Part shown: positions 10,468-64,000 of the stretch, piece after piece
Numbering within the stretch: position 1 is the first letter of the stretch
Layout of the letters: every line of letters begins with the position of its first letter
Position numbers and translations under genes: made by a program
Assembly: GCA_035480235.1 (NCBI GenBank)
Contig: DATIHX010000008.1
Coordinates: 26,845-90,844 of the forward strand
Source of the DNA: Candidatus Saccharimonadales bacterium
Lineage (GTDB): Bacteria; Patescibacteriota; UBA1384; 2-12-FULL-50-11
Direction of reading: 5' to 3'
DNA length: 64,000 bases
Notes under the pieces: model-generated
Told to the model about the DNA's origin: nothing
The model's input: only the letters and a program-made list of their open reading frames with translations
Databases searched by the model: none

Positions 10468-11574
10468 ATGATAAACAGTGGCCTCCTTATTGGCATTGAC
10501 GCTTCACGGGCGGTAAAAGCAAACCCCACTGGCACGGAGTATTATTCGCGCGAAATTATTCGGGCCATTCTGGAGCTGGACCGTCGGAACCAATACCGGC
10601 TTTATGCTCACAAAATGCCAGACAGCAGTTTTGGAGAATATTCTAACGTCGAGTGGAAGATTATCCCGCCTGGCCGGCTTTGGTCGCAATTGAAACTAGC
10701 GGCTGAACTGAAAAAAAGTTCGCCAGACGTTCTATTCGTGCCGGCGCACGTTGTGCCGCTGCTCTCCAACGTCCCAACCGTCGTCACCATTCACGGCTTA
10801 GAATTCTTGTACGCTCCCCAAAATTACGGCCACCGCGAGCGAGCTTATTTAAAATTTTCTACGGCTAGCTCAATCAGTAAAGCGCGCCAAGTGATCGCCC
10901 CTAGCCATTGGACCAAACAAGACATCTTGAAGCATTATCATTGCCCGGCTGGGAAAATTACCGTTATCGCCGAGGCCTACAACAAAGAGCTCTACAACAC
11001 GAACGGCGAAGCGGGGGAGCGGCCGATCAAAGAACCGTACATATTCTCGCTCTCCCGGCTCGAAGAACGGAAAAACCAAGCTTTGCTGGTGGAGGCTTTT
11101 GCGCTGCTGCGTAAAGAAAAAGGCGACGTCAAGCTGGTTCTGGGCGGCAAGCCGGGTTACGGTTTTGAGAAAATCCGCGCCAAGATTGATGCGCTGCCGG
11201 CTACTATTCGTGATTCGGTGTTATTACCGGGCTATTTGAGCGAAACCGACGCCGCTAATTACCTCCGCCACGCCGCCGTTTTTGCCTACCCGTCCAAATA
11301 CGAAGGTTTCGGCATCCCGATGCTTGAAGCCTTTGGCTCGGGTACGCCGGTCGTGGCCAGTAACGCCTCGTGCTTACCGGAAGTGGCCGGTGAGGCAGCG
11401 GTCTTGCTGCCGCCAGATAACGCCCTCAGTTGGGCCGCCGCCTTTAGCCGAATCTTGCACCAGCCCAAATACGCCGAGGAGCTAAAAGCTAAAGGCCTGA
11501 AACGAGCCAGCGAGTTTTCTTGGGCAAGCGCAGCCGAAGCAACACTAATAGTCATCGAAAATGCTGCAGCGTGA
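10468..11574 (+). CDS. GT-B glycosyltransferase (family 4/1 type).
   Basis: C-terminal EGFGIPMLEAFGSGTPVVAS (EX7E) block. Confidence 0.85.
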   Translation: MINSGLLIGIDASRAVKANPTGTEYYSREIIRAILELDRRNQYRLYAHKMPDSSFGEYSNVEWKIIPPGRLWSQLKLAAELKKSSPDVLFVPAHVVPLLSNVPTVVTIHGLEFLYAPQNYGHRERAYLKFSTASSISKARQVIAPSHWTKQDILKHYHCPAGKITVIAEAYNKELYNTNGEAGERPIKEPYIFSLSRLEERKNQALLVEAFALLRKEKGDVKLVLGGKPGYGFEKIRAKIDALPATIRDSVLLPGYLSETDAANYLRHAAVFAYPSKYEGFGIPMLEAFGSGTPVVASNASCLPEVAGEAAVLLPPDNALSWAAAFSRILHQPKYAEELKAKGLKRASEFSWASAAEATLIVIENAAA

Positions 11575-12283
11575 CCGCGTCCGGCTGCTGGGTGTTCGAG
11601 TCGATAGCCTCACTTGGGCCGATTTCGACCGTTGGGCAGAGCAAGCCTTGAGCGGTAACGAAGCTAATCAAGTAGTAACCGTCAACGGCGAACACATTTT
11701 GGCGGCTAATCGCGACCCAAAACACCAAGCGGCGATAAACCAAGCTGATTTGGTCGTGCCAGACTCAACAAATGTTTTGTGGGTTAGTCGTGTCAAAGGC
11801 AGGGGACTGGCCCAGAAAACTGCGGGGGTGGATTTGGTTTTACGGCTTTGCGACATCGCTGCCAAAAACGGCAATTCGATTTTTTTACTCGGCAGCCAGC
11901 CTGGCGTTGCCGACCACGCCGCTAAAAAATTAAAAAGTTGGTTCCCGACGTTAACGATTGCCGGCACTAGCGCCGCGGACCCAAACGACGATTATGCTTT
12001 AAAAAGCATAAAGCAGAGTGGCGCCGATATTGTTTTAGTGGCGTATGGGGCGCCGGCGCAGGAGTATTGGATCGCCGAACACAAAAACGAAACTGGAGCG
12101 AAAATCTTGGTGGGCGTCGGCGGGACCTTCGACATTTTGTCTGGTACTTTACCGCGGGCACCGAAGTTTTTCCGAGCCCTGCAGCTAGAATGGCTCTGGC
12201 GATTAATTTTGCAGCCATCCCGGATTAAACGTATCTGGAACGCCGTCGTCGTTTTCCCCACTAAAGCGTTGTTTAGTAAATAA
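11561..12283 (+). CDS. WecB/TagA/CpsF-family glycosyltransferase.
   Basis: VTVNGEHI...DLVVPDS...LLGSQPGVA...VGVGGTFD blocks. It overlaps the preceding GT, forming a polysaccharide or teichoic-acid-type pair. Confidence 0.85.
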   Translation: MLQRDRVRLLGVRVDSLTWADFDRWAEQALSGNEANQVVTVNGEHILAANRDPKHQAAINQADLVVPDSTNVLWVSRVKGRGLAQKTAGVDLVLRLCDIAAKNGNSIFLLGSQPGVADHAAKKLKSWFPTLTIAGTSAADPNDDYALKSIKQSGADIVLVAYGAPAQEYWIAEHKNETGAKILVGVGGTFDILSGTLPRAPKFFRALQLEWLWRLILQPSRIKRIWNAVVVFPTKALFSK

Positions 12284-12312
12284 AAAGGTCGTCTTTCGAC
12301 GACCAAGTGGCC

Positions 12313-12639
12313 TTACAGACCTAGCAAACTGCCAGCGAATAACGGTACTAGCGTCCCATTCCAACCGTTAAACGAATCTTCGGCTACCCTTCTTAGCTGT
12401 TCAAGAGAGGGGATCTCGCCAGCGCCAGATAAACCCTCCAGCCAAGTTTTAGCGACTTGATCACAGTGGATAGAGATAGCCTCTGGAGACCAGTGACCAG
12501 GAAGCGTTTGTATCTCAACGCGACCGGAAGGAGTTACAAGGCCGCGGACAAACCAATAAGGATCACGATTGTCGTACATTGTATTCCCGCTAGCTTTTGA
12601 GTAGCTGATTTCGAATGATAATGTTAGGTTAGTTGCCAA
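12313..12639 (-). CDS. Hypothetical protein.
   Basis: ORF only. Confidence 0.4.
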   Translation of the reverse strand: MATNLTLSFEISYSKASGNTMYDNRDPYWFVRGLVTPSGRVEIQTLPGHWSPEAISIHCDQVAKTWLEGLSGAGEIPSLEQLRRVAEDSFNGWNGTLVPLFAGSLLGL

Positions 12640-12681
12640 AGTACGCCTCCTACGCTTTCGCGTTTGATAGAGCTATTCTAC

Positions 12682-22198: not shown

Positions 22199-22215
22199 AA
22201 ACGGCCCTAAAAGTA

Positions 22216-22244
22216 TTGACCACTTTTGTGAGATCTGCTAAAGT
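22216..22244 (+). promoter_or_regulatory. Sigma70-like promoter TTGAC-17-TAAAGT.
   Basis: Seen directly. Confidence 0.5.
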
Positions 22245-22250
22245 GTTTCT

Positions 22251-22496
22251 ATCCAACACGGAAATTGGGCTAACCAATGAAGTGGCGGTGAAACACACAA
22301 GACTCTGGCAATAGCTAGAGCAGGAGCCCTACCAATGTCAACGCACTCCCCGCCTTGCCCGGTCAACGCACATTATTTAGGATTGGTGATTTCGAACGCT
22401 GGCACGATGGCCGGCAACACGGACAAGCACGGTGACGCGACCTGACGGTCGGCGCCCACCCAGCCCTCGGCATCGCCGGGGGCTCCCTTTTTATAT
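22251..22496 (+). ncRNA. Candidate stand-alone small RNA of about 245 nt, running from a promoter to an intrinsic terminator (GCCCTCGGC-atc-GCCGGGGGC + U-rich, 22463-22496). Its 5' and 3' ends can pair into a 6S-like closing stem. Identity unknown.
   Basis: No credible ORF. The promoter, terminator and end complementarity (GGGCU...AGCCC) were read by eye. Confidence 0.4.
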
Positions 22497-54545: not shown

Positions 54546-57500
54546 TTACAGCTCGTCGATCGGCTGAAAATCGTCAATTGGCGCTTTGGCGTCAACGGTT
54601 GTATTTGGCAGTTTTAAGCCGAGTTCGTCGGCCTTGTCCCAGGTAATTAGGTGCCCATTTTCGTCACTCGTCTCGCCTACTCCCCCACTCTGAACAGGTT
54701 GTGGTTCAGTGTTTTGATTCTCTTGGACAGTTGTTTCAACTTTCGGCTCCTCAACTTCAACCGAATTTGGCCCTGCTAGCGTTCCCCCGCCTGATAACTC
54801 CCCTGCTTCCGTTGGCGAGCTAACGGAGTACCATTTCCGATTAAAGCGATCGGAAAGCATCTCCAGTTTTCGGCCGGTCAGCGGTTCTTTTGGTTTTTCA
54901 CTCACTACTCCCCTATCCGCCGGCTGATTGGCCGGTTGATCGTCGGAGCGCTCTTCGACCGGTACTCCCCTATCGTCAAGGTTTTTTGGGGCCGACGCTG
55001 GCTCACTTTCCGCTTGTTCAACCGGTTGGTGCTCTAGTACTAGAGCACCGTTCGCTGGCACTTCCGATTCAGAAATTACCGGTGCCGTTGGCAAGACCGG
55101 AGTTGGCTTCGGGGTGACGATCCGCTCCCAATCTTGTTTGAGGCTTTTGGTTTTTTTATCTTCGTCGAGCGACAAGTTAACCGGTACCGACCAGTCGGTG
55201 ATGTAATCTTCCACGTCGGCGCGGGCAGTGGCGTACTGCTCTCGACTTCGTTCGATCACTAAATCTTTCAGCCGAGCTTTTTCTTCCGGCGGCGGTAAAG
55301 TAGCTGCTGAAAAAGCCGGTACCGTCACCCCATCGATCGCCATTTTCAAATAAATTTGGCGGTTCGGTAGATTAACTAAATCGTTGACGTCGAAAACCGG
55401 CTGGAACTCGTTTTTCATCGCTTCCGCGTCGCCCGAGCCCACCCGAAACGCGATCATCGTGCCGACGTTACCGAAGACGGCGTTGGCCACCGTTTCCGGC
55501 ATTTGGCTGATGTACTGGTTAATCATCACGAGATTGAGCCGATATTTGCGGGCTTCGGAAAGAATCGTCGCGAACGAATCGGTAGCGAAGTTTTGAAACT
55601 CGTCGACGTAGAGGTAGAAATCTCGGCGATCTTCTTCGGCCATATTGGTCCGGCTCATCGCCGCCAGTTGGATTTTGGTAATCAACATCGCGCCAAGTAA
55701 CGCCGAGTTGTCTTCGCCGATCTTACCGGTAGAAAGATCGGCTAGCAGGATTTTGCCGCCGTCCATGACTTGGCGAATGTCGAAAGCACTTTTCGGCTGG
55801 CCGACGATATTGCGGATAGTCGAGCTGGAGGTAAACTGGCCGACTTTATTTTGAATTGGGGCGATCGCTTCTTGGCGAAATTTTGGTTCGTATTTTTCGA
55901 ATTCGTTAATAAAGAAGTCTTTAACGACCGGGTCGTTAACGTTAGAAATAACTTGCCGGCGGTAAGCGTTATCGGTGAGGATTCGCATGACGCCGAGCAG
56001 GGTGGAATTGGGCGATTCTAAAAGAGCCAAAACCGAATTTCGTAAGATGTATTCCAGCCGCGGCCCCCAGCTCTCACCGAAGATTTTTTTGAAAATGCCG
56101 ACCACCCCAGATGCGACGACGTTGCGCATTTCCGGATCAACGTATTCCAGCACGTTAAAACCGATGGGGAAATGGTAATCGGCCGGCGAGAAATAAACAA
56201 CGTCGTTAACCCGTTCTTCGGGAATGAAATCTAAGATGTGGTCGATTAGTTCGCCGTGTGGATCCACCACCGCCACGCCGCGGCCTTCACGAATGTCGTC
56301 AAAAATCATGTTTTCCATCAGCGTCGATTTGCCGGTGCCGGTTTTGCCGATGATATAGCTGTGGAGGCGACGGTCTGGCTTTTTAATGCCGAATTTTTGT
56401 TCTTTGGCCCGGAAATTAACTTTCGCAAACACCGTTAACTCGTCAGCCGGGACGCTGCCGATTATCGGCAAATTAGCTGGCGGTTCGCCTTTTTTGCTGC
56501 CCGACCAAGCGATTTGTGGCGTCGCCACCGTTTGCGAAGGGAAATGGTAAATTGACGCCAGCTCGGTGATGTTGAAGAGCATGTCCGGCGCGCCAATCGC
56601 CCGGGCCTGGTACAAATCGATGGCGGCCGGGTCGTGAGAAATTTCTTTAGAAACGAAGGAATTAAGGTTAATACTATTGTATTGTTTGTAGGCGCCGATT
56701 AACTGCTCGAGTTTGGCGGTGGCAAAATTTGGGTCGCGGGCGATGGCCACCAGCCGAATCACCACTTCGAAACCGAGTTTAGTAATTTTTTCTTCGATCC
56801 CCTTGACCGCTTGCTGCTGCGAGCCGGTCAGCTCCTCTTTGTTATCTTTTTTCTCTTCTTTTTTCTCCGGCTCGGCGACTTTGCCGGTGAAAACCGCCCG
56901 GCCAAAATCCAGAACAAAAAGCAGTGATTTTTCACGAATTAACTCCGGCCAATGTTTGTGTTTCGGCGGTTTTTTGATGTTTTTTATCTCAGTTTCGCCT
57001 TGATCTTGCCAGTCGTCGTCAACCGGCCGGATGATGGTCTGAACCCAAAGCGACTCCCCTTCTCCGGCCGAACTTAATACGCCAGTGACGCCCGAGAGCG
57101 GATCAACTTCGAAATTTTGAAAAGTTTTAATTGGGTAGGTGCTCGGCCGCTTCAACGTTAGTTCGGTGGCGGCAACGGCGTTACCCTCGCTAAATTTGGC
57201 GTAATCTTCTTCGGCCGATAGTTCCTTGACATCAATGTTTGGGTACTGGGAGTAAATTTGGCTTAAAACAAAGTCTTTCAAGTCGGTGGGGACGTGAATA
57301 TAAAAAACGATATTTTGCTGGGTGTTAGCGATCTCAAAACTGATGCTCGGCTGGGCCTCGGCGTTAGTCCGAAAAATGCCGTGCAAGGCGGCAAAGAGCT
57401 GCTCGGCCGCTTGGGGAGTGCGCTCGTTATTGCGCGGCACGGCGATCGATAAAAGCTTGCTTTGGCCAGCCTCAACCGGCAACAACGGAACGTTTTGCTT

Positions 57501-57593
57501 AACTCGCAAGCGCCGGGTGGCTTGCCAAAAATATATCGCCCCCAGTAAAAAAAGGCCGATAAAACCGATATTAATGTAGGCGTAGAGTTGCAT
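54546..57593 (-). CDS. Membrane-anchored VirD4/TraG/TraD-like (FtsK-HerA superfamily) ATPase, paralog 2, with a C-terminal disordered acidic Pro/Glu/Val-rich tail of about 230 aa.
   Basis: N-terminal TM helix. Walker A GKTGTGKST, Walker B YLYVDEFQNF, followed by ARKYRLNLVMINQYISQ (TraG-D_C-like). Confidence 0.7.
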   Translation of the reverse strand: MQLYAYINIGFIGLFLLGAIYFWQATRRLRVKQNVPLLPVEAGQSKLLSIAVPRNNERTPQAAEQLFAALHGIFRTNAEAQPSISFEIANTQQNIVFYIHVPTDLKDFVLSQIYSQYPNIDVKELSAEEDYAKFSEGNAVAATELTLKRPSTYPIKTFQNFEVDPLSGVTGVLSSAGEGESLWVQTIIRPVDDDWQDQGETEIKNIKKPPKHKHWPELIREKSLLFVLDFGRAVFTGKVAEPEKKEEKKDNKEELTGSQQQAVKGIEEKITKLGFEVVIRLVAIARDPNFATAKLEQLIGAYKQYNSINLNSFVSKEISHDPAAIDLYQARAIGAPDMLFNITELASIYHFPSQTVATPQIAWSGSKKGEPPANLPIIGSVPADELTVFAKVNFRAKEQKFGIKKPDRRLHSYIIGKTGTGKSTLMENMIFDDIREGRGVAVVDPHGELIDHILDFIPEERVNDVVYFSPADYHFPIGFNVLEYVDPEMRNVVASGVVGIFKKIFGESWGPRLEYILRNSVLALLESPNSTLLGVMRILTDNAYRRQVISNVNDPVVKDFFINEFEKYEPKFRQEAIAPIQNKVGQFTSSSTIRNIVGQPKSAFDIRQVMDGGKILLADLSTGKIGEDNSALLGAMLITKIQLAAMSRTNMAEEDRRDFYLYVDEFQNFATDSFATILSEARKYRLNLVMINQYISQMPETVANAVFGNVGTMIAFRVGSGDAEAMKNEFQPVFDVNDLVNLPNRQIYLKMAIDGVTVPAFSAATLPPPEEKARLKDLVIERSREQYATARADVEDYITDWSVPVNLSLDEDKKTKSLKQDWERIVTPKPTPVLPTAPVISESEVPANGALVLEHQPVEQAESEPASAPKNLDDRGVPVEERSDDQPANQPADRGVVSEKPKEPLTGRKLEMLSDRFNRKWYSVSSPTEAGELSGGGTLAGPNSVEVEEPKVETTVQENQNTEPQPVQSGGVGETSDENGHLITWDKADELGLKLPNTTVDAKAPIDDFQPIDEL

Positions 57594-59990
57594 TTAAGTG
57601 GTGGGTTTAGCCGCTGAGGCGTTTGGGGCGAGGATTTGGACGGGGCCCTTGGCGTAGAGCGAACGGTTGTTGGCACGGATCCAGTTGGCCATCTCGACGG
57701 TTCCGGCGCCCGGCGTTTTCAGGCCGTTCATACTGAAGGGTTTGGTCGGCGTCAGATCCACCAGCAGTTTAACATATGTTTGAAAACGATCAAGATTAGT
57801 GAAGTCTTCGATCGTCAAACCGACCATCTCGCGGGCTAAGAATTCGGCGTCTTCGGCGCCGATGCGGTAACTAATGAGGGTGCCGACGTTGCCAATTACC
57901 GCGTCGCGGATTTTTTCCGTCAACTGGGCGAAGTACTGGTTGGTGATGTTTAAGCCCAGCCGATATTTGCGGGCTTCAGCCAAAATGGTGGCGAAGGTGT
58001 CGGTCGTAAAGTTTTGAAATTCGTCCACATAGAGGTAAAAGTCCTTACGATCAGTTTCGGCAATATTTGCTCGGCTAAAAGCGGCGATCTGAATTTTCGA
58101 AACCAAAATCAGGCCGAGCAAATTCGAGTTAATCTCGCCGATTTTGCCTTTAGCTAAATTAACAAAGAGGATTTTGCCGTCGTCCATCAGCTGCCGAAAA
58201 TTAAACGAGCTCTCTTTTTGGCCGATGATGTTGCGCATTAAATCGTTGGTCATAAAACGGCCAAATTTGGAGATGAAATAGTTGTACATCTCGGACTTGT
58301 GAAAATCGGCGGTTTTGGCCAGCTGCTGATCCCAGAAGGCTTTGACGACCGGATCGGTGAGATTGGCCACTGACGCGTCGCGGAAAGCGTCGTCGGTGAA
58401 GAGCCTTGGCAAGTCAATGAGCGTGCCGCCGCCCGGATTATTCATCACCGTTAAAGCAGCGTTGCGAGCCCAGTGCTCCCACTGCGGGCCGACGATACCG
58501 GTGCGGTTCGGGTCGAAAAGTTTGTAGAAAATTTCAATCACTTCTTGAATTAAGAAATCGCGTTCCTCGGGTTTTTGATACTCCAGCAAGTTCAAGCCAA
58601 ACGGGTATTGAGTGTCGGATGGGTCGAATAAAACCACGTCTTTAGCCCGTTCGGTCGGGACTTTCTTGAGGAGCGACTCGATAGCGTCGCCAAGTGGGTC
58701 GATGAAACACAGGCCTTTGCCGGCCGCCATATCTTGCTCGATCATTGTCTCAAACAGCGTCGTTTTACCGACGCCGGTTTTCCCAATCATAAAAATGTGG
58801 CGGCGGCGATCTTCATCTTGCAGGCGGACGTATTGTTTGACGCTGCGGTAGACCGATTCGCCGATGACGATGCCGGCTTTCGGTAAGTTGGCCGGCGCTG
58901 GCAATTTTTTCGCCCCCACCCATTTGACGCCGGGGGTTTCGAGAACGCGGGTGGGTAGATGGAAGAGGCTGGACAACTCCTCGACGTTCAAAAGCATTTT
59001 CGGGGCGCTATTAAACGAGCGCAACAAATACTCCCGGCTGATTTTTTGGCCGGTGGTTTTGCGGTATTTCAAACTATTATATTGCGGCGCGTAAAACTGC
59101 GAGAAAGCGCTAATAATGGTGGTCAGCCCGGCAGCGGCCGAAGCGTCGTCTTTGTCGGTGACGACCACCCGCAACACCGCCTCAAAACCGGTTTTACTGC
59201 CCTTTTCTTGCAAACCTTTCAAGAGCATCTCTTGTTCGGGGCTGACTTTTAAATCTTTGATCGGCGCGGTCGGTTTGACGACTTCGCCGATCTGGCCCAA
59301 AACTCGGGCGGTGCCGGTGCGGTTGACGAGATGGGCCTTGCCTTGCTGGACGTGGCCGGCAGCGATGTTGGTGTGCAGCCGCCAGTTTTCGCCGGTCGGC
59401 CGGATTAGTAGTTGAATCGCCGCGCCGTACGGCAGTTTAGTCATGGCGTTAGTGATCGCTTGGAGCGGATCGGCTTCCAGCGTTTGGTAGGTTTTAATCG
59501 GCAAGACAAAGTTTTTAGCCTGTTGGAAGATTGCCCCTGCCACCACCGGCGTTTCTTTGGTGAATAAACGCGGCGGCGGGCCAAGGGTAATTTCAGCGTG
59601 GGGAAAGTAACTTTGGAGCTGCCGTTCGATCACCTGCTGGACGCGCTTGGGTGCGACAATAGCGAAACTAATAACACCGCCCGAGGAGATAATTTCAAAA
59701 CTGACGTGGGCCGGGTTGCTGAAAAGCCAGTCGAGGAAGTTGCGCTGGTGAATAATGGTGGTGAGCGAGCCGAAAAATTGCTCCATCGGCGCGATCAGAT
59801 CTTTGAAATCCTTGACCGGTTCGTTGACCGATTTGTCGTCACGCTGATTGTCGCGCGGTAGTGAAACCAGCATACAAACCAGGCTGCCGGTGTCGGTGAG
59901 ATCTTCCCGGCGCTGAAAAAACCGAACCAAGAGCATCAAGGCCAGCGGCACCAACACAATAATAAGTAAAATGATGACCAGCGCGCTCAT
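57594..59990 (-). CDS. Membrane-anchored VirD4/TraG/TraD-like ATPase, paralog 1.
   Basis: N-terminal TM helix. Walker A GKTGVGKTT, Walker B YLYVDEFQNF, RKYRLGLNITNQYFAQ. It abuts paralog 2 (stop and start are adjacent). Confidence 0.7.
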   Translation of the reverse strand: MSALVIILLIIVLVPLALMLLVRFFQRREDLTDTGSLVCMLVSLPRDNQRDDKSVNEPVKDFKDLIAPMEQFFGSLTTIIHQRNFLDWLFSNPAHVSFEIISSGGVISFAIVAPKRVQQVIERQLQSYFPHAEITLGPPPRLFTKETPVVAGAIFQQAKNFVLPIKTYQTLEADPLQAITNAMTKLPYGAAIQLLIRPTGENWRLHTNIAAGHVQQGKAHLVNRTGTARVLGQIGEVVKPTAPIKDLKVSPEQEMLLKGLQEKGSKTGFEAVLRVVVTDKDDASAAAGLTTIISAFSQFYAPQYNSLKYRKTTGQKISREYLLRSFNSAPKMLLNVEELSSLFHLPTRVLETPGVKWVGAKKLPAPANLPKAGIVIGESVYRSVKQYVRLQDEDRRRHIFMIGKTGVGKTTLFETMIEQDMAAGKGLCFIDPLGDAIESLLKKVPTERAKDVVLFDPSDTQYPFGLNLLEYQKPEERDFLIQEVIEIFYKLFDPNRTGIVGPQWEHWARNAALTVMNNPGGGTLIDLPRLFTDDAFRDASVANLTDPVVKAFWDQQLAKTADFHKSEMYNYFISKFGRFMTNDLMRNIIGQKESSFNFRQLMDDGKILFVNLAKGKIGEINSNLLGLILVSKIQIAAFSRANIAETDRKDFYLYVDEFQNFTTDTFATILAEARKYRLGLNITNQYFAQLTEKIRDAVIGNVGTLISYRIGAEDAEFLAREMVGLTIEDFTNLDRFQTYVKLLVDLTPTKPFSMNGLKTPGAGTVEMANWIRANNRSLYAKGPVQILAPNASAAKPTT

Positions 59991-62056: not shown

Positions 62057-63217
62057 GTGGAGGTCCCAAAAGTGAACATTGACATTATCGGCTGGGGCGA
62101 CACCCCGACTAACCCTAAATTCGCCGTGTTTAACGACGAGGTCATCGACCGAGTCCTGAAACGCCAAGCTAATCTGATATTAAGAGCCCATCACGAAAAA
62201 AAACTTGACGAAGTTGCCAAGTGGGAAGCCGAACTAGAAAAGATGCGGAAACTGACCCCCGAGGCAATAACCGAAAAAATTGGCGTCGTCTGCCGCCAGT
62301 ATTGCTGGGGCAAAACTTCTTATCAATTAGCGGTTGAAGCGGCTAAGCGAGCGATTGAAAAAGCCTATCAAAATGACCCCGATTTCCACGTTTGGAAAAT
62401 TGCGGCTGTATATTTTGGCTCTTCGTCAGCCGACAATGCCTACCCTGGTGGGCACGCTTACGCTCATTACTGCCAAGAGGCGCTCAACTTAGGGCGGGTG
62501 GAGGGCATAACCATTGCTGACGCCTGTTGTTCGGCAACGGCCGTGATGGCGATGGCTCATCGGACGATGAGCTGGAGGCCGGAACGCTACCCGTACATTC
62601 TGGCTCTTTTTGGCGAAGTTGTTGGTTCAACACACAACGCCTTTGAAGATGAGAACGCTACCCTCTGGGGTGATGGCGGCGCGGCTTTAATCCTGCGAGC
62701 CAACCCAAGGGGTGACCCGGCTTGCGGTATCATCGACTCCTATGGTCGAGTAGACGGCACCAGCAACCGACCAGACGGCAAAAACCCGAAATACCTCGCG
62801 ACACTCAGCGAAGGTAACGGCGCCGCCTTGATTCATCGGTGGCTACGGCTTAACAACTCAATGTGCGGCAAAGAGAAGCAGATCTTCCGGGCGGTTGTGG
62901 GCGAGATACCCGACGATATCTTGGAGAACTTCATTTATCCGAACAACTACCTGGAGCTCTTGCGAAGCGAACGGAGCGAGCTCTACCCGCATAACGGCAA
63001 CGAGCATATGCTGGAATCAAACGGCGCCAAATTGGGTATTTCACCCGAACGTATTCGGCACCGTGTTCGGGACAGGGCCAACCAGTCGTCAGTTTCGTCG
63101 GTAAGTAGTTTTGCCTACCACGCCGATCTTGGCTTAGTTACTTCCGGCAAAGCCGTCTGGTTTGAGACGTTTGCCAGCGGGCTTGAGTGGTGGATGCTAC
63201 TAAATGTTATTCCTTGA
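62057..63217 (+). CDS. Thiolase-fold condensing enzyme, FabH/KAS-III-like.
   Basis: Active-site Cys block ADACCSATAV and the ATLWGDGGAAL block. The C-terminal half is divergent. Confidence 0.6.
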   Translation: MEVPKVNIDIIGWGDTPTNPKFAVFNDEVIDRVLKRQANLILRAHHEKKLDEVAKWEAELEKMRKLTPEAITEKIGVVCRQYCWGKTSYQLAVEAAKRAIEKAYQNDPDFHVWKIAAVYFGSSSADNAYPGGHAYAHYCQEALNLGRVEGITIADACCSATAVMAMAHRTMSWRPERYPYILALFGEVVGSTHNAFEDENATLWGDGGAALILRANPRGDPACGIIDSYGRVDGTSNRPDGKNPKYLATLSEGNGAALIHRWLRLNNSMCGKEKQIFRAVVGEIPDDILENFIYPNNYLELLRSERSELYPHNGNEHMLESNGAKLGISPERIRHRVRDRANQSSVSSVSSFAYHADLGLVTSGKAVWFETFASGLEWWMLLNVIP

Positions 63218-63224
63218 ACTCTAT

Positions 63225-63248
63225 CCCCTACTTCGGTGGGGGTTTTTT
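63225..63248 (+). terminator. Intrinsic terminator CCCCTAC-ttcg-GTGGGGG + TTTTTT.
   Basis: Seen directly. Confidence 0.65.
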
Positions 63249-63250
63249 AC

Positions 63251-63609
63251 TTGCCACCCCCCTATTTCGTGGTTACAGTTAAGTCATGCCCTATTGGGGG
63301 GAAAATTTGAGGAACGCCCGCCCGTGTTCTTGGGGACGTTCACGAGATTAGCCGAAGCGGCTCGGTGTTTTGTTTGGGTACGCAGACCGACTGCCGAAGC
63401 GAGCGCCTCCGCGCCGATACTAGTACCACGTCTTTGTTCTTTAGAGATCGGTGAATCGTCCCGGCTTAGTCCTACCACGGGGCAAACGGGCGTCAACCGC
63501 GTACGGAATTTGCGTTCTGTCCAGGCGAATTAGTTGATCATCTTCGTCTGCAGCATGAGGCGGTTGGGAGTGCAAGCAGTGGGAGAACCTCGGCGCGCAA
63601 ACGCCGAGG
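63251..63609 (+). ncRNA. Candidate ncRNA of about 330 nt: promoter TTGCCA-17-TACAGT (63251-63279) to a strong terminator AACCTCGGCG-cgcaaa-CGCCGAGGTT + U-run (63577-63609). No credible ORF. Contains CCCGGCUUA and duplicated GCCGAAGCG motifs.
   Basis: Architecture read directly. I cannot match it by eye to RNase P, tmRNA, SRP or 6S. Confidence 0.4.
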
Positions 63610-63626
63610 TTTCTTTTTAATTACTT

Positions 63627-63839
63627 TTAACTTTTGACTGGCCAGAAGGCGGTGAAAATCGGCCCTTCCAGGCTTTTGACATCTTTCGTTTGCCAGTTGG
63701 CGAGTTTAGCTAGTTCGCGGACTTTTTGGTTTCTGTGGTTTTGGCTGAGGGCGGCGAAAGCTTGCCCTTCTTTTTTGGTCAGTCCCTTACCGTGAGCGGC
63801 TTGGAATAAGTCAGCGAAGCTGTAAGCGCAGTAGTGCAT
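63627..63839 (-). CDS. Hypothetical 70-aa protein.
   Basis: ORF only, with no RBS. Confidence 0.3.
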   Translation of the reverse strand: MHYCAYSFADLFQAAHGKGLTKKEGQAFAALSQNHRNQKVRELAKLANWQTKDVKSLEGPIFTAFWPVKS

Positions 63840-63853
63840 TGGCCCACTGTAAC

Positions 63854-63878
63854 AAAAAACCCGCCGTGATGGCGGGGC
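63854..63878 (-). terminator. Intrinsic terminator (CCCGCC-atcac-GGCGGG + TTTTTT as read on the minus strand) for the gene entering from the right edge.
   Basis: Seen directly. Confidence 0.55.
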
Positions 63879-63880
63879 CT

Positions 63881-64000
63881 AGTTAGGGATACCGAGCGGT
63901 GGCGGTGAAGATCGATCGACAACGATGACTTCGGCATCAATTGCGGCGGCATAGGCCAACATGAACCCATAGCCATTGGCAATGTCGTCTTGGTTCTCGA
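63881..64000 (-). CDS. C-terminal fragment of a gene continuing beyond the window (...IANGYGFMLAYAAAIDAEVIVVDRSSPPPLGIPN*).
   Basis: Open frame running to the window edge. Confidence 0.35.

Follow-up and report, generated by a model that had tools for sequence, protein, structure and literature searches.

A stretch of some 300 nucleotides (nt) in the last 2 kb of a 64-kb piece of a Candidatus Saccharimonadales genome (candidate phyla radiation (CPR)/Patescibacteria) lies between a promoter-like site and a strong terminator and holds no credible open reading frame (ORF), which leads us to ask what is made from it. The window, by which we mean the whole 64-kb stretch analysed, is elsewhere densely filled with genes at a very high coding density, and because the rest is so tightly packed a gap of about 330 nt is conspicuous. 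An earlier note made from the letters of the window had read the locus as encoding a structured noncoding RNA of about 330 nt, flanked by terminators and with a promoter of its own, and comparison with homologous loci bears this out, as the region is conserved above the neutral level, carries indels that break reading frames and has accumulated substitutions that compensate one another across helices. We put the probability that the locus is a genuine structured non-coding RNA (ncRNA) gene of an undescribed family at roughly 0.8, and consider it likely, at a somewhat lower level, that this holds together with its membership in no known family.

The gene immediately upstream of the locus (62072-63217, + strand) encodes a FabH-like protein that is 100% identical to NCBI protein HSX42104.1 and is rare, with 8 matches at E≤0.001 among 5.8 billion proteins, 3 of them close. 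Three loci were available for comparison: L001, an independently assembled copy of identical sequence; L002, located on a 327-kb contig of GCA_034680565.1, where the FabH-like protein is 87% identical; and L003, where it is 65% identical. Lack of conservation had been named by the earlier note as one thing that would tell against an RNA, and the comparative alignment found the opposite, with the element present directly after the FabH-like gene in both L002 and L003. The RNA family as used below consists of three distinct sequences, those of the window (equal to L001), L002 and L003.

The neutral level against which this conservation is judged was taken from the fourfold-degenerate sites of the FabH-like gene, which are 48, 35 and 44% identical for the three genome pairs and thus near saturation. 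The RNA region overall is 82, 69 and 75% identical for the same pairs, and its 3' two-thirds (from 63403) reach 87.5, 79.5 and 83%, similar to codon positions 1 and 2 of the FabH-like gene (74-93%), with the 5' domain (63312-63400) at only 49-72% identity between genomes. As identity lies far above that of the near-saturated fourfold sites of the adjacent gene, the RNA is kept by purifying selection about equal to that on amino-acid-determining codon positions. Conservation above neutral together with pair-preserving substitutions is what is generally expected of a structured ncRNA, and both are seen here among three sequences only.

The transcription signals delimit a unit on the + strand. 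The FabH-like gene ends in an intrinsic terminator (63225-63248, a hairpin at 63225-63242 plus a T6 run) which forms the upstream boundary and sets the RNA gene apart from the FabH-like mRNA. A sigma-70-type promoter-like site follows at 63251-63279, with TTGCCA as the -35 element, a 17-nt spacer and TACAGT as the -10 element, which is the promoter proposed earlier from the window alone; both hexamers and the spacing are invariant in the window, L002 and L003, and the spacer sequence varies. Transcription probably starts at a conserved A at about 63286, giving an RNA gene of about 330 nt (63286-63618) composed of a closing helix, two domains, of which the 3' one is highly conserved and the 5' one less so, and the hairpin of the terminator. 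The last of these, helix H13, was rightly described beforehand as very strong, having an 11-bp stem with 7 G-C pairs and a 6-nt loop (63585-63612) followed by CTTTTT, the hairpin and U-tract together covering 63585-63620. L002 and L003 also have a terminator at the equivalent spot after the FabH-like gene, whose stem sequence differs yet still pairs, and this neighbouring terminator drifts freely between the three genomes. Since a 29-nt block of the RNA gene's own terminator (CCTCGGCGCGCAAACGCCGAGGTTTCTTT), loop included, is identical in all three while its neighbour drifts, the comparison suggests that the invariant hairpin is also a functional element. The closing helix H1 begins 4 nt past the presumed start and stops 1 nt short of the terminator hairpin. 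Judged from the conserved promoter-like site and the flanking terminators, the locus is evidently an independent transcription unit. As an ensemble, and with the locus conserved in two further genomes, the sequence features go beyond what chance would produce.

We then asked whether the region could instead code for a protein. Its longest ORF (63204-63533, + strand, 109 amino acids (aa)) begins within the FabH-like gene and crosses that gene's terminator. It had been dismissed as implausible from its composition, and it has no Pfam match and no counterpart among the 5.8 billion proteins other than its own copy on another assembly, leaving no confident protein-coding homolog that might speak against an RNA. 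A 57-aa query from a minus frame returned one repeat-like chance match only from 1.84 billion representative proteins. The gene callers' ORFs fall on opposite strands, 109 aa on the + strand in L001 and 85 aa on the - strand in L002, and the NCBI protein accessions of the genes flanking the RNA are consecutive (HSX42103, HSX42104, HSX42105), from which we infer that no coding sequence was called between them. Pairwise indels in the RNA alignment measure 1, 2, 4 and 29 nt, stops occur in every frame of every homolog (in L003 within the conserved core of each frame), and substitutions across the RNA have no codon-phase periodicity. Reading under genetic code 25 (UGA = Gly) leaves no frame open in all three homologs. 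Because of the frame-breaking indels, the stops in all frames and the missing codon periodicity, the locus as aligned here cannot encode a conserved protein.

What the substitutions do preserve is a fold. RNAalifold applied to the alignment of the three sequences gave a consensus of 92 pairs in 13 helices, all on the + strand, in which the closing helix H1 (63290-63296/63577-63583) joins the two ends of the molecule through 7 pairs, paired in 95% of cells, where both partners have changed in a compensatory way once (U-A versus G-C) and one partner alone has changed twice; its 3' strand lies just before the terminator. The 5' domain (63312-63400) consists of two hairpins, H2 (63312-63319/63333-63341), with 2 pairs showing double compensatory changes, and H3 (63351-63352/63399-63400) together with H4 (63357-63366/63386-63394), the latter having 5 such pairs. 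The conserved 3' domain is enclosed by H5 (63403-63410/63567-63573), of 7 mostly invariant pairs with 95% paired, and contains a second long-range helix, H10 (63494-63500/63560-63566), with 1 pair showing double compensatory changes; the 3' strands of H5 and H10 are contiguous. Between the two helices stand the H6/H7 arm (63412-63453) and the H8/H9 arm (63457-63492). The basal stem of the former has three consecutive covarying pairs and reads CGCCGAU/AUCGGUG in the window, CAACAAU/AUUGUUG in L002 and CAAUAAU/AUUAUUG in L003, and the arm holds the invariant pyrimidine-rich segment GUUCUUUAGAGA (63436-63447). In the latter all cells of H8 are paired (100%) with hardly any variation, pairing in H9 reaches 83%, and the conserved segments CCGGCUU and CCACGGGG(C/U)AAACGG are found. 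H10 in turn encloses (63494-63566) the hairpin H11 (63503-63520), which has 3 pairs with double compensatory changes (for example ACGGAAU/GUUCUGU versus CUGGAGU/GCUCUAG), the invariant hairpin H12 (63522-63550), whose 13-nt loop UUAGUUGAUCAUC includes the palindrome UGAUCA, and a variable linker. In L003 (2657-2700) this linker carries a 29-nt insertion which by eye forms a hairpin of its own, UUCG-CC-UCAGC-ACAG-GCUGA-CGAA, and by eye the H12-H10 linker would be a tolerated expansion site like the growing variable arms of structured RNAs.

The agreement between fold and alignment goes well beyond that of randomized data. Standard pairs fill 94.2% of pair cells, and compensatory double changes are seen at 16 pairs versus 6.5±2.0 in shuffles (0/500 reach this number), falling to 0-3 when partners are slid by 1-3 columns; none of the column shuffles attains 16 compensatory pairs when refolded. 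The consensus folding energy has a z score of -5.4 against conservation-class column shuffles (0/300) and of -3.8 when the terminator is left out (0/200 shuffles), and the + strand consensus fold reaches -77 kcal/mol versus -58 kcal/mol for the reverse strand, in agreement with the orientation of promoter and terminator. Among the unpaired columns 88 of 192 are invariant, in segments that run to 9-13 nt. An alternative pairing of the 5' arm of the terminator with 63403-63417 was rejected, as on inspection it is not conserved in L002. We conclude from the alignment that substitutions evidently preserve a multi-branched fold with a closing helix, a variable two-hairpin 5' domain and a conserved 3' domain, the last built on two contiguous long-range helices bearing four hairpin arms. 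Two further features are matters of speculation: kissing-dimer formation through the UGAUCA palindrome of the H12 loop, a palindrome that by our own estimate would occur by chance about 1 time in 8, and a tertiary contact made by the GCAA-like terminator loop. The 9-mer GCCGAAGCG, whose duplication had been pointed out in the window, is indeed present at 63351 and 63393, where its copies flank the base of H3/H4. With three copies in the window, where chance alone predicts 1.5, and no duplication in L002 or L003, it is a red herring without significance of its own.

If the locus is an RNA gene, does it belong to a known family? At gathering score, cmscan with the 4227 families of Rfam 15 found three tRNAs only in the whole window, and ARAGORN, which covers permuted forms, likewise returned 3 tRNAs and no transfer-messenger RNA (tmRNA). 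When the region 63150-63700 (551 nt) was searched in isolation, with permissive filters and E≤10, there was no match to RNase P RNA, tmRNA, signal recognition particle (SRP) RNA or 6S RNA, which had been the models proposed for checking the locus; chance matches only were returned, to terminator-like models (NsiR1, suhB, abiF) and an unstructured frameshift element.

RNase P RNA (RF00010/RF00011) was rejected, having no covariance-model match even at E≤10. It resembles the present RNA in length, in forming its own transcription unit, in having its ends joined by a closing helix and in possessing a CCGGCUU segment. The two strands of P4, the universally conserved long-range pseudoknot helix, were searched for as GAGGAAAGUCCGG and ACAGAAnCCGGCUUA. 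The best match to the 5' strand, GAGGAACGCCCGC, is 3 mismatches from the 13-nt motif and occurs in the window only, not being conserved in L002 or L003, and the best match to the 3' strand has at least 5 mismatches, in line with the earlier failure to find P4 by eye. The CCGGCUUA-like element also noticed then is present at 63461-63469 and conserved as CCGGCUU, outside an RNase P context: RNase P RNA forms the P4 pseudoknot near its 3' end, whereas here CCGGCUU lies mid-molecule and pairs locally within the arm H8.

Both the standard and the two-piece tmRNA are like this RNA in length and in being stand-alone genes with promoter and terminator, and tmRNA (RF00023 and the permuted families) was rejected as neither ARAGORN nor cmscan found a match. 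A conserved T-arm (GGUUCGAnUCC), a 3' CCA end, a tag reading frame and a tRNA-like domain were looked for and not found, and the 3' end is an intrinsic terminator; the tRNA-like 3' end that could not be seen by eye is absent from these searches too. SRP RNA (RF00169, RF01854) was rejected for want of a cmscan match and of a conserved match to the one domain IV segment tested, GGAAGCAGCC. 6S RNA is a rod of about 180 nt, largely double-stranded with a central bubble, whereas the present RNA has about 330 nt and three nested multi-helix junctions. It (RF00013) was rejected on the absence of a cmscan match and on the multi-branched fold, with 13 helices over about 330 nt; as a stand-alone, abundant-type regulatory RNA that acts via protein binding, 6S would be a functional analogue if our guess of a ribonucleoprotein (RNP), discussed below, is right.

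A riboswitch or other cis-regulatory leader was rejected as well. In the window and L003 the gene that follows runs convergently, which excludes such a role; in L002 an unrelated gene comes next, preceded by eye by its own promoter and ribosome-binding site, and no riboswitch model matches. The neighbourhood contains nothing suggesting a partner nuclease, recombinase, reverse transcriptase or Cas protein, and because of this guide-RNA types (omega RNA, bridge RNA, retron RNA, tracrRNA) are unlikely. None of the 4227 models of Rfam 15, which we take to include orphan large ncRNA classes such as raiA, OLE, ROOL and GOLLD, matched in a way that would point to raiA, OLE, ROOL, GOLLD or HEARO. By these model searches the RNA belongs to none of the 4227 families; of the possibilities raised at the outset, that of a divergent or permuted known RNA has not stood up to the Rfam, ARAGORN and motif searches, and that of a novel RNA has.

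The closest analogy in kind, and the source of our mechanistic guess, would be the orphan large ncRNAs. They too are stand-alone transcripts with intricate, covariation-supported multi-helix folds, their functions are understood in part at best, and several are RNPs or RNA-only homo-oligomers. raiA, at about 200 nt, is smaller than the present RNA, and this RNA is smaller than OLE, ROOL and GOLLD, belongs to another host lineage (Saccharimonadales) and is known from the sequence of three genomes only. Within this comparison set (PMC10861870, PMC3413148, PMC12286853, PMC5737381), OLE works with a membrane protein partner (PMC3413148), ROOL, GOLLD and OLE are homo-oligomers (PMC12286853), and raiA, present in >2700 species (PMC12968392), is an abundant stand-alone RNA of unknown function (PMC10861870, PMC12968392).

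We lean slightly towards the locus being the founding member of an undescribed class of large, intricately folded ncRNA specific to a Saccharimonadales sub-lineage, which could be an RNP subunit, a self-assembling RNA or a ribozyme. It would work in trans through its fold, and the roles of cis-regulator or of simple base-pairing RNA are less likely. The size, the nested junctions, the invariant loops and the invariant 3' hairpin lead us to the tentative suggestion, which we hold to be possible rather than probable, that it is a protein-binding or scaffold RNA, that is, the RNA part of an RNP or an RNA assembling with itself; its contacts would then be made by the terminator hairpin and by the loops GUUCUUUAGAGA, AGUUGAUCA and CCGGCUU, all of them invariant.

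A number of points weigh against these readings. The promoter-like site taken alone is not significant (1 found versus 0.5±0.8 in shuffles) and is weak by consensus, at 9/12 positions. Three distinct sequences are too few for the usual covariation statistics (R-scape), the fold was scored on the alignment from which it was derived, and H5, H8, H12 and H13 never vary and so are uninformative on the fold either way, with H2 and H9 fitting L003 poorly. Folding of the single sequence is no better than that of shuffles (z = -0.32) and is not significant on either strand. The suggested mode of action is of low confidence, as it draws on the architecture and on analogy with other large bacterial ncRNAs. 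To these is added that the search for rnpB, ssrA and ffs covered the 64-kb window, which lends something to the view that a housekeeping RNA (RNase P, tmRNA, SRP or 6S), permuted or highly divergent, lies here and is missed by the models since CPR sequences diverge. In length the locus suits RNase P RNA or tmRNA, promoter and terminator are its own, CCGGCUU resembles the 3' strand of P4 and the window alone has GAGGAACGCCCGC. We nevertheless consider this highly improbable, given that cmscan gave no match at either threshold, ARAGORN found no tmRNA, the P4-like 5' motif lacks conservation in the homologs, and the searches for a T-arm, a CCA end, a tag frame and the domain IV motif of SRP RNA were negative; the fold is a nested multi-junction and resembles neither a P1-P4 pseudoknot core nor a tRNA-like domain nor the rod of 6S RNA, and essential RNAs are expected order-wide, yet the element was not found at distant FabH-like loci or in the exact-block scans described below. 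Just as improbable is that there is no independent RNA gene here at all and that the region is a small-protein gene or pseudogene, a 3' untranslated region or a DNA-level element. Gene callers did place ORFs here in L001 and L002, long open frames exist in this GC-rich stretch, and a 1-nt indel between the window and L002 is followed 42 nt on by a second that restores the same + frame; set against this, the called ORFs lie on opposite strands, in L003 stops interrupt each frame within the conserved core, indels are not multiples of three, and codon periodicity, protein homologs and domains are lacking, while compensatory substitutions span the helices and the terminator and conserved promoter-like site split the region from the upstream mRNA.

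Two other possibilities accept an RNA and differ on what it does. A base-pairing regulatory small RNA (sRNA), in which an invariant loop would serve as a seed on distant mRNAs and the rest would provide stability, is unlikely, although trans-encoded sRNAs are typically stand-alone units from promoter to terminator like this one, unpaired segments of 9-13 nt are invariant here, and the strict conservation of the terminator hairpin and U-tail recalls chaperone-bound sRNAs. With its 13 helices and about 330 nt the molecule is far larger and more intricate than typical seed-type sRNAs, its conservation spans about 200 nt and not one seed, and no site complementary to the conserved loops occurs in the 64-kb window, which is a small part of the genome, except on its own antisense strand. 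More doubtful still is a catalytic or ligand-sensing RNA, either a new ribozyme or a trans-acting riboswitch-like sensor. The multi-junction fold, the long-range helices and the proportion of invariant unpaired columns (88/192) are as in ribozymes and large aptamers, but none of the known ribozyme or riboswitch models gives a match, the surroundings offer no substrate context in the form of an intron, a repeat or a controlled downstream gene, and invariance among three sequences is weak evidence.

The family appears to be narrowly distributed. The region 3' of the gene neither contains the element nor has space for it at the FabH-like loci of more distant relatives (31-45% identity; L004-L007 and L009-L012). 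No further homologs were found in exact-block scans of GTDB species-representative genomes (CCACGGGGNAAACGGNCGNCAACCG and CCAGGCGAAN{1,3}GTTGATCANCTTCG), of JGI metagenomes (GGTTGGGAGTGCA...TGGGNGANCC and a terminator 20-mer) or of IMG/VR (five exact-block patterns); the matches that these scans returned lay in high-GC coding DNA or phage genes and were judged by nhmmer and by eye to be chance. BLAST against plasmid and phage collections gave no match to the RNA locus, and no paralogs were found in the window or the retrieved loci by blastn, nhmmer or a covariance model of the 3' domain.

The three genomes share one order, a His_Phos_1 gene, the FabH-like gene, the RNA and a convergent gene for a 70-aa hypothetical protein, which is 59-73% identical across the three. 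This protein has no family, and its predicted model is helical and of low confidence (predicted local distance difference test (pLDDT) score 61). The FabH-like protein itself is far from true FabH, scoring 59-67 bits with the NCBIfam fabH models versus cut-offs of 249-292, and to our knowledge Saccharibacteria are without fatty-acid synthesis. In L002 a 1.1-kb insert (11560-12680) sits exactly between the RNA terminator and the convergent 70-aa gene. The 70-aa gene neighbours the RNA in each of the three genomes, in L002 beyond the insert. The insert holds two orphan genes (143 and 165 aa) with no PHROGs or NCBIfam match, each of which has by eye its own promoter-like site and terminator. In the window (63627-64000, - strand), and on into L001 (2634-3176), the 70-aa gene is part of a small convergent operon in which a gene for an XRE-type helix-turn-helix (HTH) protein (96 aa) precedes it. 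The HTH protein has weak MqsA-antitoxin-like and phage-repressor matches and the two genes may be a toxin-antitoxin-like pair; the XRE-type HTH gene is not conserved.

Elsewhere in the window a second promoter-to-terminator noncoding unit was seen at 22215-22495 (+ strand), with TTGACC-17-TAAAGT as its promoter-like site, about 240 nt without an ORF and a GC-rich hairpin plus T-run at its end (~22460-22495), lying by eye just upstream of a NYN/LabA-like gene (start ~22534). Rfam at E≤10 gave nothing credible for it, its single-sequence fold has z = -1.3, and it has no similarity to the RNA at 63286-63618; it could be a long leader or a further ncRNA that lacks annotation. A gene for a large serine recombinase (657-2201, + strand) with Resolvase, Recombinase and Zn_ribbon_recom domains overlaps by its 3' end a tRNA-Ala(GGC) on the opposite strand (2183-2258), a layout (657-2258) suggestive of an element that has integrated at a tRNA gene. 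Two large VirD4/TrwB-type coupling-protein-like ATPases of 1015 and 798 aa, encoded in tandem (54549-59990, - strand) and conserved in L002, are presumably part of the type IV secretion-like machinery of Patescibacteria, a subject of PMC12102498.

The genomes of CPR/Patescibacteria are among the smallest and most streamlined of bacteria, those of Saccharimonadales being about 1 Mb. In such a streamlined, gene-dense genome a 330-nt noncoding gene under constraint equal to that on amino-acid-determining positions is unlikely to be dispensable. Large complex bacterial RNAs are rare and have historically proved to be ribozymes or RNP cores. More recently they have also been found as self-assembling architectures (PMC12286853). 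Our literature searches found no report of an RNA like the present one in Saccharibacteria or Patescibacteria. We know of no Saccharibacteria-specific RNA class. The kind of molecule is thus a familiar one, a stand-alone, highly structured bacterial ncRNA of unknown function, and what appears to be new is the family, in a lineage with almost no described RNA biology. Its importance today is limited by a distribution of three genomes and a neighbourhood without a functional clue; if the family proves wider or a partner is found, it could reveal lineage-specific RNA biology in these episymbiotic bacteria.

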